Origin: Rhodospirillaceae bacterium
GTDB taxonomy: Bacteria; Pseudomonadota; Alphaproteobacteria; Rhodospirillales; Rhodospirillaceae
Length of the DNA stretch: 64,000 nucleotides
Assembly: GCA_040219235.1 (NCBI GenBank)
Contig: JAVJSV010000007.1
Coordinates: 102,841-166,840, forward strand
Reading direction: 5' to 3'
Part shown: in pieces, positions 32,544 to 52,965 of the stretch
Position numbering within the stretch: the stretch's first letter is position 1
Layout: each line of letters starts with the position of its first letter
Notes under the pieces: generated by a model
Databases searched by the model: none
Told to the model about the DNA's origin: nothing
The model's input: the letters and a program-made list of their open reading frames with translations, nothing else
Translations under genes and position numbers: made by a program

Positions 32544-32546
32544 GTC

Positions 32547-33341: not shown

Positions 33342-34130
33342 CTATTCTGCAGCTGTTTTCCAGCCACTGGTGCGTCCCGAGGTTTCGTGGGTCAAAGAAG
33401 TGCGCATGGCATAGCGATCACCGCGATAGAGCGAGGTCAACCATTCAACAGGCTGTCCTGCGTCATCGAGAATGAGTCTTGTCAGTTTCAAGAGGGGCGC
33501 GCCGACCTCTATCCCTAAAGGCACAGCAACGGCAGGTTCGGCCAGGGTGGCCGTCACTTCCTGCTCGGCCCGTGCAACCGGCACGCCAGCTTTGTTGAGT
33601 TGCACCAGCATGGGCAGGTTTTCTGAACCAGCATCAAGCTGTTCTGCGATGATCTGCGGCACATAGGTGACGATGAGAGAAAGGGGTTCTCCGTCGCTCA
33701 GTCTGATCTGGCTAGACTTGAGAACCATCGCACCCGCCTCAAGTTTAAGTTTTTCTGCGACGTCTGTTGGCGGAGTCATGAGGTCTGATGAGAGGTGGCG
33801 CACATCCGTTGCCGCGCCAATGGCTTCGACGCTCTTCAATAAATCGGTCATCGCATCGGAACTTGGCGCTGCAACGCCTTCCGCAACAAAAGTGCCTTTT
33901 CCGCGGTGTCGGACCACAAATCCGTCGGCTACCAGTTCGCGCATCGCCCGCTTCACAGTGATTCTGGAGACCCTAAATTCTTTACAAAGGGCCTGTTCCG
34001 TGGGGAGGGCGGTGCCGGTTGAATAGGTGCCCGACCGGACGTTTTCTTTGAGGATCAGATAAACCTGATGATACAGCGGCACAGCCAAGCCATCGTCAAC
34101 CGCGTGCTTGATGGCCGAAATCTTATTCAC
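33342..34130 (-). CDS. GntR-family (HutC/UTRA subfamily) transcriptional regulator
   Basis: PLYHQVYLILKENVRSGTYSTGTALPTEQALCKEFRVSRITVKRAMRELVADGFVVRHRGKGTFV plus a UTRA-like C-domain. Start set to GTG 34130, which overlaps the upstream SDR stop as GTGA. Confidence 0.85.
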   Translation of the reverse strand: MNKISAIKHAVDDGLAVPLYHQVYLILKENVRSGTYSTGTALPTEQALCKEFRVSRITVKRAMRELVADGFVVRHRGKGTFVAEGVAAPSSDAMTDLLKSVEAIGAATDVRHLSSDLMTPPTDVAEKLKLEAGAMVLKSSQIRLSDGEPLSLIVTYVPQIIAEQLDAGSENLPMLVQLNKAGVPVARAEQEVTATLAEPAVAVPLGIEVGAPLLKLTRLILDDAGQPVEWLTSLYRGDRYAMRTSLTHETSGRTSGWKTAAE

Positions 34131-34870
34131 GCGTCGAGCACCAGACCAGAGGAAATATTCATATTTGTGCCGGTCATAGAGGCCGCGTGCGCCGAGCAGA
34201 GGAACAGAACCGCACCTGCACATTCTTCTGGTGTTGCATAATGCCCAAGCGGCAGCGCTTGCTTAAGGCCGTTATGCTGCTCCTCTGAGAGGCGGTCCAG
34301 CATGGGCGTGTCGACCGGTCCCGGCGATATAAGATGCGCGCGAATACCATCCGGGGCCCATTCTTTCGCGCAATAGCGTGTCAGGTTGGTGAGCGCTGCT
34401 TTGGAAGACGCATACGCCGCGCCGGAGAGATAACTGCCACCGTTATAGCCATTGGATGATCCACACAGCACCGCCACACCGCCCGGCTTCGTGATGTGTT
34501 TGTAGGCGTGTTTAAGCACAAGAAAGGAAGATGTGAGATTGGTTTCTACGACCGTATTCCAATCCTCCAATGGCATTTCGTCCAAGCGGCCTTTGCCGAC
34601 CATGCCGGCCATGTGAATCACGTAGTCGAGCCGCCCAAACGCATCGACGCAACTTTGAAGCGCGGCTGAGACAGAGTCTTCGTCCGTGATCTCAAGGGTG
34701 ACGGGCAGCACGCGCGCATCGTCGAACGGAATAGCCCGACGACCGGTGGCCGCAACCTGACCTCCGGCGTCGAGCATCATCCGTACAACAGCCTGACCTA
34801 TGCCGCCAGTCGCGCCGGTGACGAACGCGACGCGACCAGTTGCATCAAGAAGGGCTGGGCGCGCAGACAT
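34127..34870 (-). CDS. SDR-family oxidoreductase
   Basis: VAFVTGATGGIGQAVV, NAG-like region HMAGMVG, YASSKAALTNL (YxxxK). Confidence 0.85.
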   Translation of the reverse strand: MSARPALLDATGRVAFVTGATGGIGQAVVRMMLDAGGQVAATGRRAIPFDDARVLPVTLEITDEDSVSAALQSCVDAFGRLDYVIHMAGMVGKGRLDEMPLEDWNTVVETNLTSSFLVLKHAYKHITKPGGVAVLCGSSNGYNGGSYLSGAAYASSKAALTNLTRYCAKEWAPDGIRAHLISPGPVDTPMLDRLSEEQHNGLKQALPLGHYATPEECAGAVLFLCSAHAASMTGTNMNISSGLVLDA

Positions 34871-34872
34871 GC

Positions 34873-35601
34873 TTATTCAGCAGCCTGCTTAACGTTCTTA
34901 CCAAAGGCGTCATTGATGCCGTCGAGCATACGCCAGCGCATTTCTGTCGACGCCCGCACAGCTGAGATGGCTTTCTGCTGAAGTTCTGGTGTGGTTGCAT
35001 ACTGATCGGTGATTTCCAGACCAACGTGGGCATGTTCGGCATCGCCTTCAATGTGCACATGGAAGAATTCCATATCATCGTCATTCAGGCCCATTTTGCG
35101 CATGGCTTCGACGTATTTCGGATACAGAGTTGGGAGTTGTCCTTCGAGAGCCACCATGATTCCCGCAGCACCTTCCGCGAGATGGCGGACCGTAACGAGT
35201 TCCCAAATCCAGGCGCGCATGGCACGGGTGGATGGTAAGACTTTACCGCTGTGCTCGGCGTCGTAAAAATCGGACTCGGACATGCCACAAGCCTTGCCAA
35301 ATTTAACCAGCAAGTCGGGGTGGCGCTTTTCAGGGGTGTCGGGCATTTCTTCGCCCAGAAGGTTTTCCAGCATGTGCTGACGGGCTTCCAAATCATCTAG
35401 TCGGCAAAAGAATTGCGCAAACTGTTGGGGAATTGGATCAATATAGTGGAAGTGCTGGACGGCCCACTGGCCGATTTGTTTGAGGCTCAGTTCGCCTTCG
35501 GCCCAGGAAACGCTAAAGGGGTGGCCGCCTGAATGGACCGGGCTGCGGGCCGCTTCTAAAGCTTTAGAAAAATCTTCATAGTTCATAAGCGCTTTGGTCA
35601 T
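34873..35601 (-). CDS. Heme-oxygenase-like fold protein (PqqC/TenA/CADD-type iron-containing redox enzyme family)
   Basis: HPFSVSWAEGELSLKQIGQWAVQHFHYIDPIPQQFA... with Glu/His-rich helices (LLGEEMPD...HPDL; MVALEGQ; HVHIEGDAEHAHV), as in PqqC/CADD-like proteins. Only 2 nt separate it from the next gene. Confidence 0.65.
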   Translation of the reverse strand: MTKALMNYEDFSKALEAARSPVHSGGHPFSVSWAEGELSLKQIGQWAVQHFHYIDPIPQQFAQFFCRLDDLEARQHMLENLLGEEMPDTPEKRHPDLLVKFGKACGMSESDFYDAEHSGKVLPSTRAMRAWIWELVTVRHLAEGAAGIMVALEGQLPTLYPKYVEAMRKMGLNDDDMEFFHVHIEGDAEHAHVGLEITDQYATTPELQQKAISAVRASTEMRWRMLDGINDAFGKNVKQAAE

Positions 35602-35657
35602 CGTGTCTTCTCCTACTTACTTTGTGTTTCGGTTTATTTGGGGAAACTTGAAAATTG

Positions 35658-37178
35658 TCAGTCGCTGGCGCCCCACTTGGCCAACGGGAACGTGCTCATC
35701 GGAATGGTTGTAGTTTTCTCTTCGGTAAAGAACTGCAGGCAGTCTTTGGCGCTATCACGCCCGATGCCTGATTTTTTATAGCCGCCAAAAGGCGCGCGCA
35801 GTTCACGTGTCATGGGTGTGTTTACCCAGATTGTTCCAGCGCGCAATTCTTGCGACGCTTTCATGACCGTGGGCAGGTGGTCGGACCAAATGTAGCCCAC
35901 CAGTCCAAATTCAGAGTCATTTGCAATGGCCAGGGCTTCGTCGATATCGTCGTACTTCAGGAAGGTGGCAAAGGGCCCAAAGATTTCTTCCTGGCAGACT
36001 TGTGCCTCATTCGACTTTGCCATCACGGCTGTGGGTTCAAGATAAAGCCCGGTCTCAAAACGGCTGTCTCTGTTGCCACCGGTAAGAAGCTCACCTCCGT
36101 CTTTTTTGGCGATGTCGACAAAACTTAAAACGCGCTCCATATGGGCGCGGTAACACACCGGGCCGATCTCTGTGGTCGCGTCCATGGGGTCGCCGACCTT
36201 AATTTTTTTGGTCCGCGCGATGAATTTCTCAATGAATTCATCGGCGATAGAATTTTCAACAAGAATACGAGATCCCGCCAGGCACTGTTGCCCATTGTTG
36301 GAGTAAATGCCGAGGATTGCACCATCAAGCGCCCGCTCCAGATCAGCCGAGGCCGTAATGATATTGGCCGACTTGCCCCCCAGTTCCAGTCCCACGGGCT
36401 TGAGGCCCTGGCCCGCACGAGACGCAATCATCGCCCCGGTTTGAGTGCCGCCGGTGAAGGAGACAACGTCGACTTCGGGGTGCGAGACCAAGGCGTCACC
36501 CGTGATATGACCCCGGCCGTTGACCAAGTTGACAACGCCCTTTGGAATATCTGTCTCGTGAATCAGTTCGACCACGCGCAGCAAAGACAGCGGCGTAAAC
36601 TCGCTAGGTTTGAGAACACAGGTATTTCCAAAGGCGATGCAGGAGGCGATCTTCATCGAACATAATGCGAGGGGAGCGTTCCACGGTCCGATCAAGGCCC
36701 CCACGCCGACAGGCTCACGTGTGACGACGGACAAATAGGGTTTCGTTTGGGTGTAGCATTCGCCCGTCGCCTGACTGGCAACCTCTGCAAAAAACTCGAA
36801 GTTCCAGCCCGCCCGCTTGACGTGCATGCCTTTGACATAATTCATCGTCAGGCCAGCATTGAGCGTTTCCAGATAAGCAAGTTCTTCAGCATGCGCTGTG
36901 ATGATGTCTTTAATCTGCAGCAGGATGACTTTGCGCTCATCCACCGACATGTTGCGCCAGGGTCCGTTCTCAAACGCATTTCGCGCCGTGCGAACAGCGT
37001 GATCGACTTCTTCTACGGAGGCTTCGCGCAGTTGGGAAATCTGCGTTTCCGTGATCGGGCTGATGACAGGAATGTCTTCGCCGCTTGCGGAGGGGCGGAC
37101 CGCTTGGCCGCCAATGAAGCTGGTGACGTGCGGGTTGACAGAAAATTTCTTCATCATGTCTTGGGTGACAGCATTCAT
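35658..37178 (-). CDS. NAD(P)+-dependent aldehyde dehydrogenase (hydroxymuconic-semialdehyde-dehydrogenase-like)
   Basis: 506 aa. IGPWNAPL, FTGGTQTGAMI, LELGGKSANII, SNNGQQCLAGSRILV, EEIFGPF. Confidence 0.9.
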   Translation of the reverse strand: MNAVTQDMMKKFSVNPHVTSFIGGQAVRPSASGEDIPVISPITETQISQLREASVEEVDHAVRTARNAFENGPWRNMSVDERKVILLQIKDIITAHAEELAYLETLNAGLTMNYVKGMHVKRAGWNFEFFAEVASQATGECYTQTKPYLSVVTREPVGVGALIGPWNAPLALCSMKIASCIAFGNTCVLKPSEFTPLSLLRVVELIHETDIPKGVVNLVNGRGHITGDALVSHPEVDVVSFTGGTQTGAMIASRAGQGLKPVGLELGGKSANIITASADLERALDGAILGIYSNNGQQCLAGSRILVENSIADEFIEKFIARTKKIKVGDPMDATTEIGPVCYRAHMERVLSFVDIAKKDGGELLTGGNRDSRFETGLYLEPTAVMAKSNEAQVCQEEIFGPFATFLKYDDIDEALAIANDSEFGLVGYIWSDHLPTVMKASQELRAGTIWVNTPMTRELRAPFGGYKKSGIGRDSAKDCLQFFTEEKTTTIPMSTFPLAKWGASD

Positions 37179-38038: not shown

Positions 38039-38242
38039 TTATCCTGACGTCACCAGCCGCTTGGCAGCAGATTGATTGAATTCGTGGTGACAGGAGGGGC
38101 AGTGCAGGTCGACTTCGGGCCGGTCTAGAAGGCCAGGGCCAACATGGAACCAACTGTCGCACTTGGGGCATTGGGTCCAAGAGGTGTTGCCGGATTTTTC
38201 CCAGGGCGCGCCAAGGCGCACGATCTCGCGATTACTGCTCAT
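38039..38242 (-). CDS. Small Cys4 zinc-ribbon protein, candidate VdcD/BsdD-type decarboxylase small subunit
   Basis: 67 aa with CPKC...(22 aa)...CPSC. Its ATG overlaps the UbiD-family gene stop (ATGA at 38239-38242). Size, Cys4 pattern and position match the D subunit of phenolic-acid decarboxylases. Confidence 0.6.
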   Translation of the reverse strand: MSSNREIVRLGAPWEKSGNTSWTQCPKCDSWFHVGPGLLDRPEVDLHCPSCHHEFNQSAAKRLVTSG

Positions 38243-39786
38243 AGGGTTGGCCAGACTGACATATCAATCCCGGACAAGACTTTTGCCGCATGCTCCATGG
38301 ACTCAGGCGGCACGGTCGAGCGCGGTGGAACAGGGGGGGGTGCACCTGGTCGCCCGGGCAGGGGCATGCTGGCGTCGATGCCCATTTTAGAAAGGGTTTT
38401 AGACCCCGCAGGCGTGGAGGGGTCGAGCAAAGAGCCGGATAAACCATCCACGGTGAAACTGTCGCGGCTCCATTGTACCCGCGTTGCCAGCGCAAACATC
38501 ATTTCAGAATCATCAAAGATATCGATGTCTTGATCGACGGCGATCGCCATCTTGAGGCGGCGGTAAGACAGCGCGGCCATCAGGGCATCACGCACTTCAC
38601 CCGGACCTGGGTTCTCAACTTGGATATAGGCATGAAACCGGCGGCCTTGGGCGGGCACATGCACATTGGTAATACTCGGTGCGACCTGCTTACAAAGTCC
38701 GAAGACTTTGCCTTCCATGGCCATATTGTCGGGCACCAGCATGTCTGTCAGGCCGGAGCCGTAGTCATGATAGATTGCGCCTTTACGCAGGGTGAGGCAG
38801 GTGACGTCCACCACAGGCGCAGCGACTTGAGGGCCGGAGTATCCAGTGTATTCGCCGAACGGGCCATCTGCTTCTAAGACGTCCCGCGGCACAGTGCCTT
38901 CGATAACGATCTCAGCATCAGCCGGGACCATAATCGCATCGCCAAAGGTCCGGCTGGGGACAACGCGCAGAGGTTCGCCGAGCAATCCGCCACAGGCGCC
39001 CCAATGGCTCTCCGGGTAATTCAGTTTGGCTTGCGTGCCCATCAGCACGGCGGGATGGTGACCGATCCAAAACACCACCGGGCAGTCTTCGCCACGCGCC
39101 CAAAACTTCCGCATATTGCGATTGTTATGAGAGGCTGGGTAGGGGAAGTAGGACATCCGCTTTTTCGATTTAATCCAGCAGCGCTGAATGGCAGTGTTGT
39201 CGGTTTTTGTATCCGGGTCGTAGGTCGTGGCATGGGCCGAGGTTAAGTAAGGGCCGGGGTCGGTTTCATGTTGGGTCAAGGCGGGCAAGCGGGTCAGGTC
39301 AATATCATCGCCCTCGATCACGATTTCCTGGACCGGCGCTTCGGCTCCACTGATGACCTTTGGCGCGATCTGGCTCCCCGTCCGTTGGGCATAAATCGGC
39401 GCTGCTTTTTGGTGATCATTGATCCCGAGGGCTTGAGCGACGATGGCGCGGCTGGCCGTCAGATTAGTCACGACTGGCATCTCGCTGGAAGACCCGTCCG
39501 CCATCTTTGGAGCCTTCACCATCACAATGGGCCTGCGCCCGGCTTTTTCCAGAGCGTACTGAAGGGCTGTGATCTCATGAACCACGGACAGTGAGGTTGA
39601 TGGCTCAAACACGGCGGACTTCTGAGAGTCCAAAAATGTGCGAAGGTCTAGTATGGCCAGCTCCCTGTGATTTCTCAAAAGGTATAAAAGTATGCCTTTA
39701 TACTCAAGCGGAATCTTTTGGGGGTGCAAAACCAAAAGAAACCCAGTGAATGAAGCTCTTTCGCCTATTCTAAATCCCCTATACAC
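38239..39786 (-). CDS. UbiD-family (prFMN-dependent) reversible decarboxylase
   Basis: The N-terminal DLRTFL motif and length are typical of UbiD/VdcC/AroY enzymes. The conserved domain starts near 39650. The track start (GTG 39786) adds about 45 aa of AT-rich, unlikely coding sequence; an in-frame TTG at 39678 (MRNHRELAILDLRTFL) is a plausible alternative. Confidence 0.88.
   Translation of the reverse strand: MYRGFRIGERASFTGFLLVLHPQKIPLEYKGILLYLLRNHRELAILDLRTFLDSQKSAVFEPSTSLSVVHEITALQYALEKAGRRPIVMVKAPKMADGSSSEMPVVTNLTASRAIVAQALGINDHQKAAPIYAQRTGSQIAPKVISGAEAPVQEIVIEGDDIDLTRLPALTQHETDPGPYLTSAHATTYDPDTKTDNTAIQRCWIKSKKRMSYFPYPASHNNRNMRKFWARGEDCPVVFWIGHHPAVLMGTQAKLNYPESHWGACGGLLGEPLRVVPSRTFGDAIMVPADAEIVIEGTVPRDVLEADGPFGEYTGYSGPQVAAPVVDVTCLTLRKGAIYHDYGSGLTDMLVPDNMAMEGKVFGLCKQVAPSITNVHVPAQGRRFHAYIQVENPGPGEVRDALMAALSYRRLKMAIAVDQDIDIFDDSEMMFALATRVQWSRDSFTVDGLSGSLLDPSTPAGSKTLSKMGIDASMPLPGRPGAPPPVPPRSTVPPESMEHAAKVLSGIDMSVWPTL
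39682..39703. promoter_or_regulatory. Inverted repeat GTATAAA-N8-TTTATAC in the ubiD-like / ubiX divergent region; candidate GntR(HutC) operator
   Basis: Perfect 7-bp arms. HutC-type GntR operators are typically GT..TA..AC-like palindromes, and the operon encodes such a regulator. Confidence 0.3.
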
Positions 39787-39852
39787 AGAGTTCAGGAATC
39801 CTTTACTCCCGCTGAGTAGGGTGTTTTCACTTATAGGTTTGAGGACGTCGTT

Positions 39853-40470
39853 ATGGGTGAGGCCAAACGCCTAATTGTTGCTATCAGTGGTGCGTCAGGC
39901 ATCGCATATGGCATCCGGTTGCTTGAAGTCTTGCGCGATACGCCGTTTGAATCTCATCTCGTCATGTCTCAGTCTGCCGAAGTGACCCTGGCCTATGAGT
40001 CAAAGCTGAAGGTCGCAGATGTGAAAGCACTGGCAGATGTTGTGTATGCCAATGGCGATATTGGCGCCGCCATTTCCTCAGGCTCGTTTCGCACCGCAGG
40101 GATGGTGATCGCGCCGTGTTCCATTCGATCTGCGTCAGAAATTGCGACGGGTGTGACTTCGACCTTGCTGACCCGTGCGGCTGATGTTGTTCTCAAAGAG
40201 CGGCGGAGATTGGTTCTGCTGGTGCGCGAAAGCCCTCTTCATACAGGGCATTTGCGGACTTTGACTCACTTGTCAGAAATTGGCGCGATCATCGCACCAC
40301 CGGTGCCCGCATTTTACACCAAACCAGAAACAGTAGACGATATGGTTAACCACACCATTGGCCGGGTCTTAGACATGTTTGAGATTGACGCAGGATTGGT
40401 GAAACGCTGGGGCGAGCCGGGAGGGTCCGGCAAACCTGCGAAGCGGCGCGCTAGTAAACAGGGATCATAA
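39853..40470 (+). CDS. ubiX: Flavin prenyltransferase UbiX (prFMN synthase)
   Basis: KRLIVAISGASGIAYGIRLLEVL..., MVIAPCSIRSASEIATGV, LLVRESPLHTGHLRTL. Divergent from the UbiD-family gene. Confidence 0.9.
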   Translation: MGEAKRLIVAISGASGIAYGIRLLEVLRDTPFESHLVMSQSAEVTLAYESKLKVADVKALADVVYANGDIGAAISSGSFRTAGMVIAPCSIRSASEIATGVTSTLLTRAADVVLKERRRLVLLVRESPLHTGHLRTLTHLSEIGAIIAPPVPAFYTKPETVDDMVNHTIGRVLDMFEIDAGLVKRWGEPGGSGKPAKRRASKQGS

Positions 40471-40475
40471 AAGAC

Positions 40476-41036
40476 ATGCCAGAGGTCAGTGGTACCGACA
40501 TTGCGAAGGGCAACCCCTTTTGGGAATTTGCCACCTGGGCGTACAGCCAGCCTGGTGTCGATAAAGCGATGCTGTCCTTGCAAAACCGCATGGGTGTCGA
40601 CATCAACATGGTGTTGTTTTGTGTGTGGTTGGCCTATCGCGGTTCCAACGGCAATGATCTGGCCCAGCATCTGGCATCTGCTTTGAAAATGTCGCGATCC
40701 TGGCAGCGCGACTTGGTTGAGCCCATCAGAACCTGCCGAGAGAACCTCAAAGTGATTATCGAGGGGCCAGACCTTGTGGGTCGTAACCGCGAGGCGGCAA
40801 CTGCGTTGCGCGAGCGCCTCAAGGCCAATGAACTCGACTTGGAAGCCCTTCAAATCCTTGGTTTATTTGGCTTGGTCAGCACCGGTGATGATGACGAAGG
40901 CGCGCCAGTTGATATCGTGACGCAAAAAGAAGACGCCCAGAACAATCTGAACGTCTACTTTGCGGCCACGGGCATCAAGCTAGACCATTTGGCTCAAAGC
41001 CATGTGCTGCGGGTTTTAAACGGCGTCTTTCAGTAA
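40476..41036 (+). CDS. TIGR02444/DUF2390-like conserved hypothetical protein
   Basis: NPFWEFATWAYSQPGVDKAMLSLQNRMGVDINMVLFCVWLAYRG resembles the N-terminal signature of that family (from memory). It starts 5 nt after the ubiX stop. Confidence 0.6.
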   Translation: MPEVSGTDIAKGNPFWEFATWAYSQPGVDKAMLSLQNRMGVDINMVLFCVWLAYRGSNGNDLAQHLASALKMSRSWQRDLVEPIRTCRENLKVIIEGPDLVGRNREAATALRERLKANELDLEALQILGLFGLVSTGDDDEGAPVDIVTQKEDAQNNLNVYFAATGIKLDHLAQSHVLRVLNGVFQ

Positions 41037-41043: not shown

Positions 41044-41829
41044 CTACCAGGGCACGGTCTCGCCGGTGTAGATGATGTATTCGCCAGAGGTCTCTGGGCC
41101 GAGGTTTTCAACGTTTTTTATGACACCGGCGACACTTTGTTCGGTCGTCATGCCCATGTCGCCGTATCCTGCTTGTCGAAGCAGGCGAGTCTGGACAACT
41201 CCAGGTGCCAGAATACCCACCATGATGCCTCGTGGAGCCAATTCAACCGAAAGCGCCCGATAACCCATGTTTATTGCGGTTTTTGACATGCGGTACTGAT
41301 ACAGAGCCTGGAAAAATGCGCCGGGTTGCAGGTTTGTGAGTGAGGCCGTGCCGGAGGTGATGACGGCGATTTTCTTCTGCTCGCTGGCGGCCACATGCTC
41401 CAGAAATGCCTCGGCCATTTTCATCGGGCCGATCGCGTTGGTTTTATAGACCCGCTCCATCGCCTCAAAATCGATATTGCCGATGGTCTGGACTTCGCGG
41501 CCGCCGCCCAGAATTCCGGCGTTATTCATCAGCACATCAATGGCCGTGCCTTTGAGCTTGGCGGCCAGGGCGTCGATTTGGGCGTGATCCGTGACGTCGA
41601 GGGCCTCAACTCTGATATTGGAATGGGCTGCGGCCAGCGCTTGCAGGTCTTCGTCGTCTGCGGGACTGCGGCTGGTGGCGATCACGTCCCAGCCGTTTTC
41701 CGCATATTGCTTGGTGAGTTCGAGGCCGATCCCCCGGTTTGAGCCGGTGATCAGCACGGTTGCCGCTTCGACAGCGATGCTTGAGAACATCGCGACAAAG
41801 CTGGCGATGATGAGGGAATAACGCATCAA
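41044..41829 (-). CDS. C-factor/sniffer-type classical SDR with Sec signal peptide (array copy 1)
   Basis: MMRYSLIIASFVAMFSSIAVEA|ATVLITGSNRGIGLELTKQYAENGWDVIATSRSP...NNAGI...YRMSK...TGETVPW. Confidence 0.85.
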   Translation of the reverse strand: MMRYSLIIASFVAMFSSIAVEAATVLITGSNRGIGLELTKQYAENGWDVIATSRSPADDEDLQALAAAHSNIRVEALDVTDHAQIDALAAKLKGTAIDVLMNNAGILGGGREVQTIGNIDFEAMERVYKTNAIGPMKMAEAFLEHVAASEQKKIAVITSGTASLTNLQPGAFFQALYQYRMSKTAINMGYRALSVELAPRGIMVGILAPGVVQTRLLRQAGYGDMGMTTEQSVAGVIKNVENLGPETSGEYIIYTGETVPW

Positions 41830-41849
41830 AATGCTCCTGAAACGGCGGA

Positions 41850-42641
41850 TTAAAAGGGCTGTGCTGTTCCGTCATAACGGTAGTAAGCCCCGGAATCCGC
41901 GATGGTCAGGCCATCGATCACCGAGATCATACCGCCGATGCTGTCTTCCGGCTCAATCAAGCCTGGAAAGTTGGCATCACCCATTTTTTCTACTTTCACG
42001 GTGCCCGGCGATAACACAGCCACGATCACGCCGTCGGCCTTCAGATCGCTCGCTATATTTTTCATATACATGTTGAGAGCTGTCTTGGACGATTTGTACC
42101 AGTAGCCGCCCGCGATGTTTGGTCCCTGATAGCCGAAGGAACCCGCCAGAGAACTGACGGCCAGGATTTTTTTGTCTTCACTGGCTTTGACGTGCGGCGC
42201 AAAGGCTTCGCTGACTTTAAGCGGGCCGAGCGCGTTGATGCGCATGAAGTTTTCCCACTGGTCATAGGCGAGCGTGCCGAAGGACTGTGGTGCGGGTTGG
42301 CTGAAATCGCCCGTGATCCCGGCGTTGTTAATCAAAACATCGATGGGGGTGTCTTTGAGTTTCCCGGCCAGGGCATCGATCTGGGCGTGATTGGTGACAT
42401 CCATGGTCTCGATCCGCACCAGATCAGGATACTCAGATTTTAGCGTCAAAAGTGATTCTGGGGCTGTGTCGCGGCGATGGGTGGCGACCACATCCCAGCC
42501 CCGGGCGGCGTACTGCTTGGCGAACTCAAGCCCAATGCCTGAATTGGAGCCCGTGATGAGCACGGTCTTGGCGTCAGCTTGAGTGATAGAGGTTGCGGCA
42601 AGGAAAGCTGCCACAGCGGCTGCGAGACGGGAGAGGCGCAT
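41850..42641 (-). CDS. C-factor/sniffer-type classical SDR with Sec signal peptide (array copy 2)
   Basis: MRLSRLAAAVAAFLAATSITQADA|KTVLITGSNSGIGLEFAKQYAARGWDVVATHR...NNAGI...YKSSK...DGTAQPF. Confidence 0.85.
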   Translation of the reverse strand: MRLSRLAAAVAAFLAATSITQADAKTVLITGSNSGIGLEFAKQYAARGWDVVATHRRDTAPESLLTLKSEYPDLVRIETMDVTNHAQIDALAGKLKDTPIDVLINNAGITGDFSQPAPQSFGTLAYDQWENFMRINALGPLKVSEAFAPHVKASEDKKILAVSSLAGSFGYQGPNIAGGYWYKSSKTALNMYMKNIASDLKADGVIVAVLSPGTVKVEKMGDANFPGLIEPEDSIGGMISVIDGLTIADSGAYYRYDGTAQPF

Positions 42642-42777
42642 GGTTTGAAGGTCCCTGATAAAGTGAAGAGTCGTTGGTGGGGATCATAGCGATAGAAATG
42701 CCAAGTCTACGCAGCCCTGCAGCACGTGACCGCAGAGCGGCAGTTTATGAGGGGCGAAAAAAGTGTCCGCCCCCTTG

Positions 42778-42800
42778 CCTTGGAACGAGCCCATGCATGA
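42778..42800 (-). repeat. Solitary inverted copy of the degenerate unit of the 26704 array
   Basis: The reverse complement contains TGCATGGGCTCGTTCCAAGG, identical over 20 nt to 26704-26723. Confidence 0.8.
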
Positions 42801-42991
42801 CCACTTTTTTCTGCATGTTTAGCTTTAGGATAGCACTGTAATTATTTGTTATTAAAGAATAATATGAGATATATTTATCGTTGACATTAAGCTATACGCC
42901 AATGGCGTAGTTGGTGCTTGCGTATGTTCGAACTCGGATGCTCGAAAGTGTAAAGCGCCCTTGTTATAGGTCCCTTGTTATTAGAGGCAGG

Positions 42992-43756
42992 CTACCAGGT
43001 CATTTCTTCGCCGGTGTTGGCGAAGTACTTACCCGACATGCTGAGGTCGTATTTGTCGATCATCGTCATGGATTGGGCGACGCTGGTTTCAACCGATTTC
43101 ATCATTTGCTTGGGCAGACCGGCGGTGAAGTCCGTATCGACAAACCCGGGTGTGAGAATACCGATGATGACGCCGCTCTCCTGCACCTTCGGGTGCTGAT
43201 AGACGTTGAGCATCACCATGTTCAGGGCGGACTTGCTGGCCCGGTAGAAGGCCTGGCGTGAGCCACGCACGGCGGACAACCGGCCTTCTGAGGAGGAAAT
43301 GTTGATAATCTTCTTCTGGTTGCTGGCAGCGACGTGGTCCAGAAACGCTTCCGTAACCTTTAACGGCCCGAGTACGTTGATGTTCATCACATCGTTAAAC
43401 ACCGAATAATCAATGTTGCCGAAGTCCTGAGTATCCCGGCCCCCTGAGATCCCTGCGTTATTGATCAGCACATCAATGGCGGTGCCGCGCAGTTTCTCGG
43501 CCAGGCGGTCAATGCCCGGGTGGTCGGTCACGTCCAGTGTTTCCAGGCGGACATTGGGGTTGGCGGCGGCCAGGGCCTGGAGGTCGGCATCGTCTGCCGG
43601 CGAGCGGGCGGTTGCGATCACATCCCAGCCGCGCTCGGCATAGCGCTTGGCGAATTCAAAGCCGATGCCCCGACTGGCCCCGGTGATCATAACCGTGGCC
43701 GCCTCAGCCGTTGTAAAGGACAGGAGAGCGATGAACAGTGTGGCGGTGCGCAGCAT
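42992..43756 (-). CDS. C-factor/sniffer-type classical SDR with Sec signal peptide (array copy 3)
   Basis: MLRTATLFIALLSFTTAEA|ATVMITGASRGIGFEFAKRYAERGWDVIATARSP...NNAGI...YRASK...TGEEMTW. Confidence 0.85.
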   Translation of the reverse strand: MLRTATLFIALLSFTTAEAATVMITGASRGIGFEFAKRYAERGWDVIATARSPADDADLQALAAANPNVRLETLDVTDHPGIDRLAEKLRGTAIDVLINNAGISGGRDTQDFGNIDYSVFNDVMNINVLGPLKVTEAFLDHVAASNQKKIINISSSEGRLSAVRGSRQAFYRASKSALNMVMLNVYQHPKVQESGVIIGILTPGFVDTDFTAGLPKQMMKSVETSVAQSMTMIDKYDLSMSGKYFANTGEEMTW

Positions 43757-43813
43757 GAGAGACTCCTAGATGTTTTTAATCTGATTTCAGAAACCTAAGC
43801 TACCACGGGCCGA

Positions 43814-44623
43814 TTACCATGGAATTATGGTGCCGTCGTAGTTGAGAAAATCGCCAGACCGCTCCAGGGTTAGGCCAGCCGTTGTGGCGATCATCTGGGA
43901 CACGCTCTGTTCCGTGGTGAGCGGGGTAAAGCCGCCATAATCGTAGTCTTCAGCGGCTTCAGCGGTTTCCTGATCGAGCCCAAAAGCCTCGCGCAACATG
44001 CGGGTGTCCACGGCGCCCGGCATGAAGATGCCAACGGCGATGCCCTGGTCTTTCAGGCGCATGGCGGTGCCGCGCATGGCCATGTTCACGGCGGCCTTAC
44101 TGATGGCGTAATAGGGCGCGCCGGGGCTGCGCGTCACCGAGGCGATGGACCCGGCGGTGCTGGAAATGACGACGATCTTTTTGTCCGTGCTGGCGGCCAC
44201 ATGAGGGGCAAAGGCTTCAGACATCTTGAGCGGGCCAACCACGTTGACGTCCATCACCTGCTGGAACAGGTCCCGGTCCAACTGTCCCCAGGTCTGGCCC
44301 TCGCGGTCGCCGTACATGCCGGCGTTGTTGACCAAAACATCGATGGGTGTGTCTTTGTAAGCCTCGGCCAAAGCTGAAATGCGGTCCTGGTCGGTGACAT
44401 CCAGCTGTTCGATGGTAATTTTCGGATTGGCGGTGGCCAGGGCTTGCAGGTCTTCATCGTTGGCGGGCGAGCGGCTGGTGGCGATGACATCCCAGCCGGC
44501 AGCGGCATATTGGGTGACGAATTCCAGGCCGATGCCCCGGTTTGAACCAGTGATGAGCACGGTTTTGGCAACTGCGGCGTGTGAGCCCAGCAGGGCGACA
44601 ATAATGAGAATAATCCGTATCAT
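43814..44623 (-). CDS. C-factor/sniffer-type classical SDR with Sec signal peptide (array copy 4)
   Basis: MIRIILIIVALLGSHAAVA|KTVLITGSNRGIGLEFVTQYAAAGWDVIATSRSP...NNAGM...YAISK...DGTIIPW. Confidence 0.85.
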   Translation of the reverse strand: MIRIILIIVALLGSHAAVAKTVLITGSNRGIGLEFVTQYAAAGWDVIATSRSPANDEDLQALATANPKITIEQLDVTDQDRISALAEAYKDTPIDVLVNNAGMYGDREGQTWGQLDRDLFQQVMDVNVVGPLKMSEAFAPHVAASTDKKIVVISSTAGSIASVTRSPGAPYYAISKAAVNMAMRGTAMRLKDQGIAVGIFMPGAVDTRMLREAFGLDQETAEAAEDYDYGGFTPLTTEQSVSQMIATTAGLTLERSGDFLNYDGTIIPW

Positions 44624-44674
44624 AGCATAATATCCTTTATTGAGGCTCTATTAACACAAGGCTTACCATGCCCA

Positions 44675-45427
44675 TTACCATTCTAGGGGCGCGCCCGTGT
44701 ATTGCATGAACTCACCTGAGGTTTCCGGGGTGTACCAGTCAATCACGCTGCGCACGCCGGTGGCGCTTTCTTCCACTGAGATTTTGGGAATGTCGAAGGG
44801 CGCGGACATATCCGTATCGACCACGCCAGGATGAATGAGGCCGATGATCAGTCCGTGCTCGGCGGTATCTTTGGCAAAGTTGCGCATCAGCATATTCAAG
44901 GCCGTTTTGCTGGCCCGGTAGAAATAGATGTTGCCGTTGGTGTTGGCCAGCGAGCCGACAATGCTGGAAATGTTGATGATTTTCTTGGTGTCGCTGGCGG
45001 TGACGTGCGCCTGAAAGGCGGTGGCCATTTTCAGGGGCGCCAGTGTGTTGGTTGCAAACAGGGGAGCGGCCTGGTCAAAATCCAAACTGCCAATGCGTTG
45101 CTGGCCGGCGTCGCCGAGAATACCGGCATTGTTGATCAAAACGTCGATGGCAGTGCCGCGCAGTTTATTGGCCAGCGCCTCGATTTGGGCGTGATCTGTC
45201 ACGTCCAAGGCTGCGATTTGAACAGTATCATAGGCAGCGGCGAGTGCCTGCAGCGCCGTATCGTCGTCCGGGGAGCGCGCTGTGGCAATAACCGTCCAGC
45301 CATCGGCCGCGTATTGCGTGGCCAGTTCCAACCCCAGGCCACGGTTGGAGCCGGTGATCAGAACGGTTTTGGCGCTTGCGGAAAAACTTAATAATATCAA
45401 TAGGGTGGAGATCAATACCCTGATCAT
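44675..45427 (-). CDS. C-factor/sniffer-type classical SDR with Sec signal peptide (array copy 5)
   Basis: MIRVLISTLLILLSFSASA|KTVLITGSNRGLGLELATQYAADGWTVIATARSP...NNAGI...YRASK...TGAPLEW. Confidence 0.85.
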   Translation of the reverse strand: MIRVLISTLLILLSFSASAKTVLITGSNRGLGLELATQYAADGWTVIATARSPDDDTALQALAAAYDTVQIAALDVTDHAQIEALANKLRGTAIDVLINNAGILGDAGQQRIGSLDFDQAAPLFATNTLAPLKMATAFQAHVTASDTKKIINISSIVGSLANTNGNIYFYRASKTALNMLMRNFAKDTAEHGLIIGLIHPGVVDTDMSAPFDIPKISVEESATGVRSVIDWYTPETSGEFMQYTGAPLEW

Positions 45428-45506: not shown

Positions 45507-46037
45507 TTACGCAGTCAGCGCTGTTTTCAGACCTAGGATGTCTTTGGCGCTCACCATAACCGCATAGCCTTCGGTTGTTGGGAGATAGACCACCGCTGTG
45601 AGGTCTGTGATGTAGCACCAGGCTTTCTCGTTATTCTTGAGCTTGAACCACCCCAATTGGAGCCGGGGTAGGCCAACACCATTGGTTCGCCATTTAGGTT
45701 TGAAGTCCCGGTCGCGGTCTGTGGTCAGATCCAGTGTTTTAAGCGCTGCGCTGTCGAGGGCCGTCAGCGGCACAGAACGTCCATAAAACGGCGCTTTCAG
45801 GATGAGGTGCGTCTGCGTAATCTCAAGAGCTGTGCTGCGACGGTGAAACACGAAAAGCCCAATAAAAGCGGAGACGGCAGCGATGATTAGAGTGGCAATC
45901 CAAAGTCCAAGACTGCCTGCCGTTGGGTCTGAGCTAAACCCCCACAAAACCGCAGCGTAAACGGTGCCCATAAACCCGAAGACCACTGCCCCTGGCAGCG
46001 GGCCTGGATTGGGGATTGCGAAGGTTCGGAACGCCAT
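45507..46037 (-). CDS. Hypothetical membrane protein (2 N-terminal TM segments plus a soluble domain)
   Basis: Track ORF trimmed to ATG 46037: MAFRTFAIPNPGPLPGAVVFGFMGTVYAAVLWGF...LGLWIATLIIAAVSAFIGLFVF, then about 110 aa soluble. I recognised no family with confidence. Confidence 0.55.
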   Translation of the reverse strand: MAFRTFAIPNPGPLPGAVVFGFMGTVYAAVLWGFSSDPTAGSLGLWIATLIIAAVSAFIGLFVFHRRSTALEITQTHLILKAPFYGRSVPLTALDSAALKTLDLTTDRDRDFKPKWRTNGVGLPRLQLGWFKLKNNEKAWCYITDLTAVVYLPTTEGYAVMVSAKDILGLKTALTA

Positions 46038-46217
46038 GCGATGGCTATACTCAGACTGTCGGTGCCGCTCTATCCTTAAATGGCGTGTTTCGCTTGCCAC
46101 TAAGACGCAGACCGGACCCTAGTATTAATAAAAACAGCTTCAGTTTGTTCGCGGCAGAATTTTTTACTTAAAGCGAGGTCTAAGTAAAAATAACTGCTGT
46201 CAGCTGGGTAAATGTAG

Positions 46218-49011: not shown

Positions 49012-49440
49012 TTAGGCTGCTGTTTTTTGCCGCCATAGGCCGTCTTTAAAGCGTTGGATGATCTTCTTTGCCCTGCTGCCACTCATGGTCAAAGCATCAA
49101 GCTTGCCAGTATATCCAACGAACCCTTCAAGCATTTCGGCGGTGTGCGTGGGGTCAACAAACCCCATGGACCATTCTTCGTATTCAGGCTCCTCTACGTG
49201 GTCTTCCAGTAACAGGCGGAAATTACAATGACGCGGATCGCTTTTGATGCGTTTTAGCGTCTCTTTGACAGCGTTTTCGGGGCCTTCTAGGACTTGAAGA
49301 AATGAGCCTTGGTGATAGACCAGTATACCGCTGATCCCTTCTGTTGAGTTATTGCGTCGAGACAGAGCCAACAGTTCAGCCAGTTCTTGGCTACTGGGAG
49401 ACTGTGTTGCTGCGCTTATGTAAATGGTTTGAAGCATCAT
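49012..49440 (-). CDS. Short BLUF-domain blue-light FAD photoreceptor
   Basis: LQTIYISAATQSPSSQELAELLALSRRNNSTEGISGILVYHQGSFLQVLEGPENAVKETLKRIKSDPRH contains the conserved Y, Q and W/M-type BLUF residues. 142 aa, no output domain. Confidence 0.85.
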   Translation of the reverse strand: MMLQTIYISAATQSPSSQELAELLALSRRNNSTEGISGILVYHQGSFLQVLEGPENAVKETLKRIKSDPRHCNFRLLLEDHVEEPEYEEWSMGFVDPTHTAEMLEGFVGYTGKLDALTMSGSRAKKIIQRFKDGLWRQKTAA

Positions 49441-49585: not shown

Positions 49586-51151
49586 TTACATCTCACCGGA
49601 GGAGTAGCGGTTTTCGATGAACTGCATGCGGTCTCGCTCGAACTCGATCTTTGGCGCGATGGCTGTATTTGAAAAGTCCAACAGCACATCTTGCTCGGTG
49701 GTATGACGCGGCCAGTCGGGCAGGCCCGCCGCGTTGGGAGTGCCGGTCTTGGCAAAATTGACCCAATACGCGCTGATCAGGTTGGCCATTGCCCGATCTG
49801 AGTCTGATACCGGGTTTTGAGATGTCGCATCTATGGTTTTAAACACATAGGCTGTTTCGGCGCCGTGCGGCGCGCCGGGCATGGTGCCAAGCTTTTCCTC
49901 GAAGACGTAGTCGAAGCGATACAGGTAAGTCGGTTGATCTGTCTTTGCATGCTGCCGCGCCAGCCAGCGCTGAGAGCCAAAGAAGGTATCGAATTCCAGA
50001 TTGTTGAGGATGGTGCGGTCATCCACGTCGCCATAAAGCTCTGTAATCTCCTCCCGGCTGATTTGTAGGGCGTTCAGCAGCAAATCCGCCTTGTCCAGCC
50101 GCATCAGCAGGCTGCCTTCCCAACTGGTGGCTCCCGTAAGATACGGCACCGGATGCTGGCGGCCCTCGCTGAACACCGGCCCAAGGGCCTCCGGCAGATA
50201 AATGCCATCCACGGCGGGGTTGAGAGAGCCAAAGGCGGTTTTGTTCTGGTAGTCTAAAACCTGCTCCCAGGTGAGCGCCCGCAGCCCTGCAACAATCGCG
50301 GCGTCGGACTCCTTATCTTCAACCAGAGCCGTCGCCATGGCCGCACCTGTGGTTTCCAGAGATGGAGACATATAGCGATCTATGGAAATGTGTTTTGCTT
50401 TGTAGGGGCGCACATTTGAGCTTTGCGACATGGCTTTATGGAACAGACCTTTTGCGGCAGGGAGGCCCATCAGGTAGTTGACCGAAACGCCGCCCGCCGA
50501 CATGCCGAAAATGGTGACGTTGGCCGGGTCTCCCCCGAAAGCTGCGATATTGTCGCGCACCCATTCCAGGGCCCGGACCTGGTCTGAGAGATAGTAGGTG
50601 CCGATGGCGTCCTCCGGTGATTGGCGGCTGAGCGCGGGGTGGGCGAACTGGCCGAGATAGCCCAGACGATAATTAAAGGTCACCACGACCATGCCCTGTG
50701 TGGCCAAGGCAGAGCCATTGTAGACCGCCATGCCGCTGTCACCGCTGGTGAAACCGCCCGGCAGCATCCACACCATGACGGGTTTCGGTTCAGAGGCGGG
50801 TGTATTCAGGGTCCAGACATTCAGGGTCAGGCAGTCTTCCTGCATGGAGCGGTCGCTGAGGTCTTCGGCGTTGTAGCCGAGGCGCAGGGCTTGCGGGCAG
50901 ACACCGCCGAATTGTTCTGCGTCGCGGGTGCCCTCCCAGGCAGTGGGCGGTTGCGCCGGACGCCAGCGTAAATCGCCAACCGGCGGCGCGGCATAGGGAA
51001 TGCCTCTAAACACCTTGAGGTCATTTACCACTGTCCCGCGGACTTGGCCCTGTTGAGTTGTTACGGTAGGACGGTCTTGAGCGAGGACTGCGCCAGTGAA
51101 CTGGCTGGCGAACTGGCTGGCGATGGCGAAAACAATAAGCAGCGTCTTCAT
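49586..51151 (-). CDS. Secreted type-B carboxylesterase/lipase
   Basis: Signal peptide MKTLLIVFAIASQFASQFTGAVLA, oxyanion region WMLPGGFTSG, nucleophile elbow FGGDPANVTIFGMSAGG. Confidence 0.9.
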   Translation of the reverse strand: MKTLLIVFAIASQFASQFTGAVLAQDRPTVTTQQGQVRGTVVNDLKVFRGIPYAAPPVGDLRWRPAQPPTAWEGTRDAEQFGGVCPQALRLGYNAEDLSDRSMQEDCLTLNVWTLNTPASEPKPVMVWMLPGGFTSGDSGMAVYNGSALATQGMVVVTFNYRLGYLGQFAHPALSRQSPEDAIGTYYLSDQVRALEWVRDNIAAFGGDPANVTIFGMSAGGVSVNYLMGLPAAKGLFHKAMSQSSNVRPYKAKHISIDRYMSPSLETTGAAMATALVEDKESDAAIVAGLRALTWEQVLDYQNKTAFGSLNPAVDGIYLPEALGPVFSEGRQHPVPYLTGATSWEGSLLMRLDKADLLLNALQISREEITELYGDVDDRTILNNLEFDTFFGSQRWLARQHAKTDQPTYLYRFDYVFEEKLGTMPGAPHGAETAYVFKTIDATSQNPVSDSDRAMANLISAYWVNFAKTGTPNAAGLPDWPRHTTEQDVLLDFSNTAIAPKIEFERDRMQFIENRYSSGEM

Positions 51152-52161
51152 TGCTGGTTTTCCTGGCTGTGCCTGAAGGCGGCTTTGCCCTCAAGCAGGA
51201 GATCGTAAAGCCGGGCACCGTCGGCCCCGGTATCGTCGAGAATGCGCTGCAAGCCGCTGGCGGACGCGTCTTTCCATAGCTTGCGTTGATCTTCCGTCAG
51301 GTCGAAATAGGACATGCCGTTGGCTTCGCCCTGTTTGACCACGCCTTCTACGTACGCGCGGACATTGGGCCGTGAGACGTCCAGCTGGTCGTAGGACTCA
51401 ATCAGGGCGGCTTTCTGGGCATCGGTGGCCGAGGCGAGCCACCGCTTGTTGGCGAAATTGGCCCCCATCTCGTACATGCCTTTGAGGCGGGTGGCACAGC
51501 AGACCTGGCCGTTGAGGGCGTTATGCACAAAAACGATGTTGGACAAGCCGCCCTGGACCATGCCGGTTTGCAGGCCGGGCACCAGTTCGCCCAGTTCTAA
51601 GACGGCGTAGTCTGCGCCCACCGCTTCGACAAAGGATTGCAGAATGATGGAGGGCGAAATCCGAAGCGTCATGCCGTTGAGATCGCTGGGCACCAGAACC
51701 GGCTGGTCAACCGTATACAAAACGGTCCAGCCCACATCGGTAAAGTGAAGGACCTCGAGATCAAGTTCTGAGAAAAACTGACGGATGGGCTCGGCCAGAT
51801 AGTTGTCGAGGACGAAGTCGGCTTCCTCGATGCTATCAAACACGTAAGGGGCCAACAGGACGCCCATTTCTGGCACCAGCGAGGTCATGCCCTGGGACGA
51901 CACGCTGACGATTTGTATACGATTGCGCCGTGCGCCGGTGATCAGTTGCTGTTCCGAGCCGAGTTCGCCGCGCAGGTACCATTCCAGATCAAAGTCGGGG
52001 TTGCTGTCGATTTTTGATTGAAAGCTCATCCACTGATCCCACCAGACGCTGTCGGGAAAGGAATAAACGGCGACCTTGCCTTTGAGCGGGTCTGCCGCAG
52101 CCGGAACGACTGAGAGAAGGCCGACGATAACGGTGATAAGCGTGCTGAGATATTTCATCAT
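51148..52161 (-). CDS. TRAP-transporter DctP-type periplasmic substrate-binding protein
   Basis: Trimmed to ATG 52161: MMKYLSTLITVIVGLLSVVPAAA. GELGSEQQLITGARRNRIQIVSVSSQGMTSLVPEMGVLLAPYVFDS is DctP-like. Its stop overlaps the esterase start (ATGA at 51148-51151). Confidence 0.8.
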   Translation of the reverse strand: MMKYLSTLITVIVGLLSVVPAAADPLKGKVAVYSFPDSVWWDQWMSFQSKIDSNPDFDLEWYLRGELGSEQQLITGARRNRIQIVSVSSQGMTSLVPEMGVLLAPYVFDSIEEADFVLDNYLAEPIRQFFSELDLEVLHFTDVGWTVLYTVDQPVLVPSDLNGMTLRISPSIILQSFVEAVGADYAVLELGELVPGLQTGMVQGGLSNIVFVHNALNGQVCCATRLKGMYEMGANFANKRWLASATDAQKAALIESYDQLDVSRPNVRAYVEGVVKQGEANGMSYFDLTEDQRKLWKDASASGLQRILDDTGADGARLYDLLLEGKAAFRHSQENQQ

Positions 52162-52245
52162 CCCATCACAGTAAGTCGCCCCTTGGCGTGAGGCAACTGA
52201 GCGTGCAGAGTCCGGCACTCAGTTTTTGAAAATGAGGAGCCGCGC

Positions 52246-52965
52246 ATGCCGACTGTTTTAATTACCGGAGCCAACCGGGGGATCGGTCTGGAGTTTACGC
52301 GCCAATATGCCGCCGACGGCTGGACCGTGATTGCCTGTTGCCGCGCCCCGGACGGCGACAGCGCGGCAGATCTCAGGTCTATCGCCGAGACGGCTGGGGG
52401 CCGGGTGTCGATCGAGACGATGGATATGCTGGATCATGGCTCCATCGACGCGGTTGCCAAAAAATACGCGGGCACGGCCATCGACGTGCTGTTGAACAAC
52501 GCGGGCATTATCGGGCCGGTGCCGATACAAGATCATCTCGACGCCCAGCATTTCGGCACCATTGATTATGAGGTGTGGGATCAAGTGATTCGCACCAACA
52601 CGTTTGCCCCAATCAAAATGGCCGAGGCTTTTATCGAGCATGTCCGGGCGGGGGATCAGAAGAAGATCATTACCCTGTCCAGCACCGTCGGCTCGTTTCA
52701 GGAGGATGTGACTCCGGCATTTTGTTACTGCACCTCAAAAACAGCGGTGACCAAAGCCGTGCAGTTGTTGTCGGAGGCGCTCAAAACGGACGGCGTGATC
52801 GCCATGGCGTTCTGCCCGGGGCATGTCAAAACGCGCATGGGCGTTGGCGGCGCGACCGTTGAAATTCCCGATAGCGTGGCGGGCATGCGGGGATTGATTG
52901 ATGGGTTCACAATGTCGGACACGGGCACCTTCCGCCGCTTTAACGGCGACACGGTCGCTTGGTAG
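52246..52965 (+). CDS. C-factor/sniffer-type classical SDR, leaderless (sixth paralogue)
   Basis: MPTVLITGANRGIGLEFTRQYAADGWTVIACCRAP...NNAGI...YCTSK...NGDTVAW. Starts directly at beta-strand 1 with no hydrophobic leader. Confidence 0.85.
   Translation: MPTVLITGANRGIGLEFTRQYAADGWTVIACCRAPDGDSAADLRSIAETAGGRVSIETMDMLDHGSIDAVAKKYAGTAIDVLLNNAGIIGPVPIQDHLDAQHFGTIDYEVWDQVIRTNTFAPIKMAEAFIEHVRAGDQKKIITLSSTVGSFQEDVTPAFCYCTSKTAVTKAVQLLSEALKTDGVIAMAFCPGHVKTRMGVGGATVEIPDSVAGMRGLIDGFTMSDTGTFRRFNGDTVAW

Follow-up and report, generated by a model that had tools for sequence, protein, structure and literature searches.

We examined five consecutive genes for short-chain dehydrogenases/reductases (SDRs) in a 64,000-nucleotide stretch of a Rhodospirillaceae bacterium genome (GenBank assembly GCA_040219235.1, contig JAVJSV010000007.1, positions 102,841 to 166,840), which we refer to as the window and whose own numbering is used throughout. 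All five lie on the minus strand and encode sniffer-like SDRs preceded by putative signal peptides for Sec-dependent export; they appear to belong to an extensive branch of a well-known enzyme family that is predicted to be exported and has apparently not been described. In order of transcription they are S5 (44675..45427, 250 amino acids (aa); match to Pfam adh_short with E 5e-38), S4 (43814..44623, 269 aa, its C-terminal substrate loop bearing an acidic insertion; E 7e-40), S3 (42992..43756, 254 aa; E 6e-36), S2 (41850..42641, 263 aa; E 2e-35), and S1 (41044..41826, 260 aa; E 6e-32). A sixth paralogue, S6 (52246..52965, plus strand, 239 aa), recognized by its adh_short match, its alignment and its orthologue, starts with MPTVLITG, carries no leader and is presumed cytoplasmic. 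An earlier note on this DNA had described five tandem SDR paralogues at this place, which the open reading frames (ORFs), their adh_short matches and their shared motifs bear out, and the gene sizes it gave hold for S2 to S5. For S1 it gave 261 aa; the ORF does extend to a TTG at 41829, but the ATG at 41826, with AGGAG 8 nt upstream, is most probably the start.

The spacers along the array measure 51, 57, 350, and approximately 20 nt. The 350-nt gap between S3 and S2 (42642..42991) holds a terminator-like hairpin (42788-42767) and a promoter-like site (42887-42859), both on the minus strand, and therefore probably splits the array into two transcription units, S5-S4-S3, of which S5 is the first gene, and S2-S1. 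We found no ORF of note and no Rfam match in this gap, and no riboswitch or known RNA in the locus at E<=1.

The five leaders (19–24 aa) are built on one plan, with a basic residue at position 2–5, an uncharged hydrophobic run of 11–17 aa, and an A/V-x-A site that ends one residue before the T-V-(L/M)-I-T-G of the first beta-strand (beta-1). They read MIRVLISTLLILLSFSASA in S5 (45371..45427), MIRIILIIVALLGSHAAVA in S4 (44567..44623) and MRLSRLAAAVAAFLAATSITQADA in S2 (42570..42641), each followed by KTVLITG, MLRTATLFIALLSFTTAEA in S3 (43700..43756), followed by ATVMITG, and MRYSLIIASFVAMFSSIAVEA in S1 (41764..41826), followed by ATVLITG, all on the minus strand. No consecutive arginines and no lipobox cysteine occur in any of the five, which places them outside the twin-arginine translocation (Tat) and lipoprotein classes. 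Upon inspection of the start sites, a Shine-Dalgarno-like AGGA or GGAG was found 6–9 nt before every leader-encoding start (AGGA in the case of S5), and the reading frames upstream are closed within 3–29 codons. Alternative starts that would remove the leaders were sought, and none was found between the hydrophobic core and beta-1 except a Val codon inside beta-1 itself, so the downstream starts that the earlier note had named as a way to overturn its view do not exist in usable form. We take the leaders to be translated and their starts to be real.

For a uniform assessment, we used a heuristic tripartite test that looks for a positive n-region, an uncharged h-region of about 8–17 aa and a small-x-small c-region, with windows cut from mature domains as controls. 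All five leaders passed, as did 184 of 204 extended homologues (90%), compared with 6.2% of the control windows. Leader identity among orthologues is 16–70%, where the mature domains share 70–85%, a rate of divergence that looks like that expected of signal peptides. The array leaders also resemble those of a DctP protein, a TonB-dependent receptor, an SBP_bac_5 protein and a carboxylesterase encoded in the same window. Thus the Sec-type leaders with an AxA-type site ahead of beta-1 and no twin arginine, as first noted, are present in five of five proteins by inspection and by the test, and we regard them as signal-peptidase-I-like, with export and cleavage predicted.

Behind the leaders, family membership is clear. 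All six proteins match PF00106 adh_short with 111–137 bits against a gathering cutoff of 26.6 (E 5e-32 to 7e-40 for the five array ORFs), and the other array copies are 43–54% identical to the first. The 56 invariant columns of the alignment include the TGxxxGxG loop, the Arg after beta-2, the Asp of DVTD, NNAG, the catalytic Asn, Ser, Tyr and Lys (N-S-Y-K), and PG; the glycine-rich loop, NNAG, and N-S-Y-K are invariant across all six proteins, and the C-terminal G..xPW/F motif is present in the array proteins. The earlier observation that nucleotide-binding and catalytic motifs are conserved in all five copies is thereby upheld. In S2 the glycine-rich loop reads TGSNSGIG, with Ser in place of Arg, and a double Arg follows beta-2. 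The top NCBIfam models were PRK08177, PRK06953 and IsoH (1-hydroxy-2-glutathionyl-2-methyl-3-butene dehydrogenase, NF049951), and every score fell below its equivalog cutoff: 116–182 bits for the two PRK models against cutoffs of 251–254, the best match of S5 being PRK08177 with 182 bits (cutoff 251), and 78–134 bits for IsoH against 350. The proteins are therefore related to the PRK families without being equivalogs, and the IsoH assignment does not apply.

By sequence, the closest Protein Data Bank entries are 5TT1, 5WQM/5WQO, 5IDQ, 5TQV, 3WXB, 7XWH, and Drosophila Sniffer (1SNY). An AlphaFold2 model of S5, with a mean predicted local distance difference test score (pLDDT) of 94.6 and a predicted template modelling score of 0.90, has a Rossmann SDR core from residue 21 (beta-1); the leader is modelled as a helix over residues 2–13 with pLDDT 74–80, below that of the core. 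Foldseek comparison of this model returned NADP(H)-bound carbonyl reductases with template modelling (TM) scores of 0.78–0.86. Basic residues placed to contact the 2′-phosphate of NADP are kept in exported-type (leader-bearing) members, with R29 of the glycine-rich loop in 87% and R51 after beta-2 in 100% of them. Taken together, the five proteins are best assigned to the sniffer-like branch of the classical SDRs, as predicted NADP(H)-type carbonyl reductases or alcohol dehydrogenases.

Comparison with related loci indicates that the array is old. Arrays of two to seven copies were found in six further loci: L082 (three SDRs, a DUF6632 gene, four SDRs), L083 (two SDRs), L084 (two SDRs, three inserted exported-type proteins, four SDRs), L085 (four SDRs in different surroundings), and L087 and L089 (four SDRs each, in a third context). 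In a distance tree, each window copy pairs with an orthologue of 70–85% identity in the same gene order, and two further orthogroups are absent from the window. Orthologues of S5 are L082_a (76%) and L083_a (70%), with ratios of nonsynonymous to synonymous substitution (dN/dS) of 0.10–0.13; those of S4 are L082_b (76%), L084_p (73%), and L083_b (73%; dN/dS 0.06–0.19); those of S3, L082_c (85%) and L084_q (84%; 0.05–0.14); those of S2, L084_a (85%) and L082_d (81%; 0.04); and those of S1, L084_b (84%) and L082_e (79%; 0.09). Across all mature domains dN/dS was 0.04–0.19. The leaderless S6 has its own orthologue, L082_cyt, which is 81% identical and likewise leaderless. DNA identity between array copies is only 60–78% even in the best-conserved segments, with no near-identical tracts, which rules out recent amplification or gene conversion. 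Because orthologues correspond one to one in order, purifying selection is strong in these ratios and the copies are far apart in DNA, the array is ancient, ordered, and selectively maintained, as the earlier note had supposed from the divergence of the copies. The window genes would then be five of at least seven ancient tandem paralogues kept in fixed order by a marine alphaproteobacterial lineage.

The place of the S3-S2 gap is occupied in the relatives, by the DUF6632 gene in L082 and by the three inserted genes in L084. The L082 insert encodes a membrane protein; a remnant of it was looked for in the window gap, and none was found. In L084 the inserted genes (5255-9008) encode a multicopper oxidase, a protein with an FGE-sulfatase domain, and a 254-aa unknown protein, all with signal-like N-termini.

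The leader is not peculiar to the window but marks a large clade. A signal-like N-terminal extension is present in 105 of the 120 90%-identity clusters closest to S5. A profile search of 1.84 billion representatives gave 2409 matches at E<=1e-30, and the best 150 of these comprise about 65 leader-bearing and 64 leaderless proteins. Among 277 sampled homologues of normal length, 163 have Sec/signal-peptidase-I-like leaders, 20 have a lipobox, approximately 14–20 are Tat-like (convincingly so in P0091, P0130, P0132, P0144, and P0145), and 66 are leaderless. Three kinds of predicted export signal are thus interchangeable on one and the same domain. In the four-gene array of L085, L085_d (10808-11632) carries the twin-arginine leader MVKPKAIDLTRRDFAQGAAMGVALA (TRRDF) beside three Sec-type neighbours, so the predicted export route appears to switch within a single array. 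A neighbour-joining tree placed the leaderless proteins in one large block, with the exported-type proteins as the remainder and about seven inferred transitions. The separate block of leaderless relatives, together with the start of S6 at the very point of predicted cleavage, agrees with the earlier view of the leader as an added feature. All sampled leader-bearing clusters came from metagenomes or metagenome-assembled genomes (MAGs), whereas plasmid or chromid homologues of Sinorhizobium, Ensifer, Vibrio, and Pseudoalteromonas align only from residue 20–22 and are leaderless, a contrast that probably accounts for the lack of work on the exported clade. Among the matches listed by a profile search of genome contigs with the family alignment, generic or leaderless SDRs predominated, which says little on how widely arrays occur. 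Three top-scoring representatives of 715 aa (P0121), 640 aa (P0122), and 1462 aa (P0161) consist of two or three fused leaderless sniffer-like domains and were rejected as relatives of the array.

Residue conservation was then compared between 70 exported-type and 65 cytoplasmic representatives. For the nucleotide-binding positions, R29 is conserved in 87% of exported-type and 95% of cytoplasmic members, R51 in 100% and 98%, and D75 in 100% and 91%; for the catalytic positions the figures are 100% and 98% (N127), 86% and 95% (S155), 94% and 100% (Y170), and 100% and 100% (K174). Constraint on the cofactor-binding and catalytic positions is thus as strict in exported-type members as in cytoplasmic members. 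Entropy is higher in the exported-type set only in the substrate loops 159–170 and 201–230, and variable substrate loops around a retained active site fit active enzymes with diversified substrates. The two sets also differ in cysteine content. All five array proteins have none, as have the mature domains of nearly all array members in the other loci, compared with five in S6 and five in L082_cyt; the mean per representative is 0.34 in exported-type and 2.27 in cytoplasmic members, a difference (p ~5e-16) that is confounded by ancestry. Position 49 is occupied by Cys in 55% of the cytoplasmic and by Thr in 97% of the exported-type proteins. We treat low cysteine content as a hint of extracytoplasmic life and as supporting evidence only.

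These results sharpen a puzzle over the cofactor. The Sec pathway moves chains unfolded and free of cofactor, and to our knowledge the periplasm is generally taught to be without NAD(P)H, yet an apparently intact NADP site is kept throughout a clade that is mostly Sec-type by its leaders. We therefore regard the paradox raised in the earlier note as real, and the same puzzle is in print for the periplasmic ceramide reductase CerR. Literature searches on periplasmic, secreted, or exported SDRs and on periplasmic NAD(P)H returned essentially nothing, and no description of exported SDRs of this type was found in them, in keeping with the suggestion that the system is undescribed; papers on a chlorine-stress SDR and on Brucella rhomboid proteins were irrelevant to exported SDRs.

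Adjoining the window array at 38239-41036 are a UbiD-family decarboxylase (minus strand), a UbiX flavin prenyltransferase, and a DUF2390 gene (both plus strand). DUF2390 and UbiX are beside the array in the window, L082, L083, and L084, and so is UbiD except in L083; this is conserved synteny without an evident functional link to the SDRs. On the other side, 79 nt upstream of S5 and on the same strand, there is a predicted membrane protein of 197 aa that contains a bacterial PH domain (bPH_5; 45507-46100) and is not kept beside the array in L082–L084. The second array type, in L087 (8698-11815) and L089 (8003-14837), has as neighbours an MsrA without a leader, a CDP-alcohol phosphatidyltransferase and a large membrane protein with a sulfatase fold, a setting that may hint at envelope lipids or may be inherited synteny.

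Further away in the window, the gene for a type-B carboxylesterase, whose leader is Sec-like, shares 4 nt with that of an upstream DctP-type TRAP solute receptor (49586-52218, minus strand), an arrangement suggestive of an operon in which an exported esterase is combined with a receptor for uptake. Between the esterase and the SBP_bac_5 gene lies a stand-alone BLUF blue-light sensor of 142 aa (49012-49440). The segment 58537-63504 encodes a CoxD-like AAA ATPase, a CoxE VWA protein, XdhC, and a MobA-like nucleotidyltransferase fusion, a maturation set for molybdenum hydroxylases that is also present in L082 at 1-4791. At 28496-37178 are two glutathione S-transferases, a dienelactone hydrolase, a GntR/UTRA regulator, an aldehyde dehydrogenase, and a TenA/haem-oxygenase-like protein, together with two more leaderless SDRs that belong to other subfamilies, giving this region a detoxification or catabolic flavour.

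With gene structure, family and fold, residue conservation, orthology, selection, and the leader architecture of a large clade established, the reading we favour is that S1–S5 are exported through Sec, cleaved by signal peptidase I, and released as soluble periplasmic NADP(H)-binding oxidoreductases; we give it a probability of roughly 60%. The five would share one chemistry, hydride transfer at a carbonyl or alcohol group through N-S-Y-K, and would differ in substrate from copy to copy, a battery suggested by the concentration of divergence in the substrate-binding loops. Their targets would be small molecules or envelope components outside the cytoplasm. Since most members use Sec, nucleotide would have to be bound after export. 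In the most speculative step, NADP would then be held as a quasi-prosthetic group, with one periplasmic substrate oxidized and another reduced in a ping-pong cycle as in the oxidoreductases GFOR and AAOR; by this analogy such a cycle seems the most likely arrangement, ahead of recharging by a partner, as has been proposed for CerR.

Several observations weigh against this proposal. The location outside the cytoplasm is predicted from sequence for every member, the leaders were assigned by a heuristic test, and Lys stands at +1 of the predicted mature protein in three copies, which is mildly unfavourable for Sec export. Cleavage, periplasmic NADP(H) binding, the substrates, and any redox or signalling role are likewise predictions. 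Shared ancestry confounds the cysteine depletion, for which only six independent exported/cytoplasmic contrasts could be drawn, a comparison of low power (4:1, p=0.19). Neither the window nor seven related loci contained a recognizable gene for supplying NAD(P) to the periplasm or for a redox partner, and the gene neighbourhoods gave no consistent clue to the substrate. Finally, the bound-cofactor cycle is drawn by analogy from GFOR and AAOR, both of which are exported through Tat and belong to another fold family.

The strongest competing explanation, though an unlikely one, is that the leader is an uncleaved signal-anchor that tethers the catalytic domain to the periplasmic face of the inner membrane, where it would act on membrane lipids or lipid-linked intermediates much as CerR acts on oxidized ceramide. 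This would agree with the oxidation of cardiolipin and phosphatidylglycerol in vitro by the CsgA/Sniffer branch (PMC4579348) and with the CDP-alcohol phosphatidyltransferase and sulfatase-fold membrane protein near the L087 and L089 arrays, but such lipid-gene neighbours occur in only one of the three array contexts. A hydrophobic run of 11–17 aa and a modelled helix of 12 residues are also short for a membrane span, a canonical small-x-small site stands right behind the run in all five proteins, and the lipobox homologues show that tethering, where it is used, comes by lipidation.

A little less probable still is that the proteins are not exported at all, the N-terminus being a cytoplasm-facing membrane-association helix or an inefficient leader. 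Ordinary NADPH would then be used and the paradox would vanish, so that the perfect conservation of the NADP sites would be most simply squared with physiology; the Lys at +1 in three copies and a localization that was read from sequence alone lean the same way. However, positive charge on the N-terminal side of the hydrophobic run predicts an N-in, C-out orientation, and the same domain bears unmistakable Tat or lipoprotein signals in some homologues. The exported-type members are poor in cysteine, against five in the leaderless paralogue of the same genome, and the presence of that paralogue means that a cytoplasmic job would need no leader.

We consider it improbable that the proteins or their fragments serve as cell-surface signals, or as makers of lipid-derived signals, in the manner of Myxococcus CsgA and not as metabolic or detoxifying enzymes. 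Their likeness to CsgA over its full length and the historical C-signal model speak for such a role, but a set of five to seven paralogues that have diverged with their catalytic residues intact is better explained by substrate diversification than by a single signal, and the hosts, all of them marine MAGs, show no sign of developmental biology; CsgA itself has no leader, and its surface location has been contested by work that favours an enzyme role at the inner membrane (PMC4579348). Least probable of all is that they are exported non-catalytic binding or scavenging proteins on a kept SDR fold, which would dispense with a periplasmic cofactor, for pseudo-enzymes normally lose catalytic or cofactor residues, and here the conservation of N-S-Y-K and of each NADP-contact residue matches that in the cytoplasmic enzymes, with dN/dS of 0.04–0.19.

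The soluble periplasmic oxidoreductases that we favour would represent a classical SDR clade that has borne export-type leaders, mostly for Sec, over long evolutionary time with its NADP site intact, and that forms ordered batteries in some lineages. Should export be confirmed, the question of how nicotinamide cofactors or reducing equivalents reach the periplasm could conveniently be studied with these small soluble enzymes, which would also point to unrecognized extracytoplasmic carbonyl or alcohol chemistry in abundant uncultured marine bacteria. A broader claim, that Sec-exported sniffer-like SDRs are a large unrecognized class of genuinely NADP(H)-dependent periplasmic enzymes, we put forward tentatively and think doubtful as it stands. 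Were it true, many Gram-negative bacteria would deliver pyridine nucleotide or hydride to the periplasm by an undescribed route (perhaps through a cofactor exporter, by loading non-dissociating NADP after export, or along a protein relay), and some lineages would deploy up to seven such enzymes to transform carbonyl or alcohol compounds before uptake.

Known systems provide partial parallels. The nearest by fold are the sniffer-like NADPH carbonyl reductases, for which we compared Drosophila Sniffer (1SNY), enzymes of Pseudomonas aeruginosa (5WQM/5WQO) and Burkholderia (5TT1/5UZX/5TQV), a patulin-detoxifying SDR (7XWH), and chicken carbonyl reductase (3WXB). At 29–38% identity and TM 0.78–0.86 they share fold and subfamily with the window proteins, including the glycine-loop Arg, the Arg after beta-2, NNAG, N-S-Y-K, and the C-terminal G..xPW tail. 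Every alignment, however, starts at about query residue 18–21 and leaves the leader unmatched, and the window proteins differ in that 19–24 aa leader, in the absence of cysteine, in their arrangement as a tandem battery, and in their sub-cutoff NCBIfam scores.

The earlier note had pointed to CsgA both as kin and as the only precedent for an extracellular member of this SDR group. Kinship was supported: S5 is 38% identical to genuine CsgA (P0307, retrieved from the database) over the full length with E 2e-47, and the two share motifs that include HPGxVxTDM and the G.F.DY.G..VPW tail. CsgA orthologues are 58–99% identical to one another, and 38% is the level of other bacterial sniffer-like SDRs, so the window genes are not CsgA orthologues and the label of CsgA/sniffer type is apt at the subfamily level. 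In contrast to the window proteins, which are 19–24 residues longer, CsgA is encoded by a single gene of approximately 229–232 aa, begins with MPCMRYVITG, and contains cysteine. It has been described as a NAD+-specific inner-membrane enzyme that oxidizes cardiolipin and phosphatidylglycerol, an activity shared by Sniffer (PMC4579348). With no leader and a revised placement at the inner membrane, CsgA offers only a weak precedent for export; CerR and the Tat-exported GFOR and AAOR serve better in that role.

Caulobacter CerR has been placed in the periplasm by beta-lactamase fusion and permeabilization and has a conserved NAD(H) site; its authors stated the periplasmic cofactor puzzle and were left without an electron source. 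Like the window proteins, it is a Rossmann-type reductase facing that puzzle, but it is NDUFA9-like and not a sniffer-like classical SDR, its lipid substrate and pathway are defined, and it sits peripherally on the inner membrane as the product of a single gene. Zymomonas GFOR and Caulobacter AAOR are described (PMC4628093; Halbig et al. 1999 as listed in PMC7317946) as periplasmic, NADP-containing enzymes that couple oxidation to the reduction of a second substrate. Because the oxidation of one substrate is coupled to the reduction of another, they need no free cofactor pool, and they serve as the model for the mechanism proposed here. They differ in belonging to the Gfo/Idh/MocA family and in being exported folded, with cofactor, through Tat, whereas Sec-type leaders are found on all five window proteins and predominate in the clade to which these belong.

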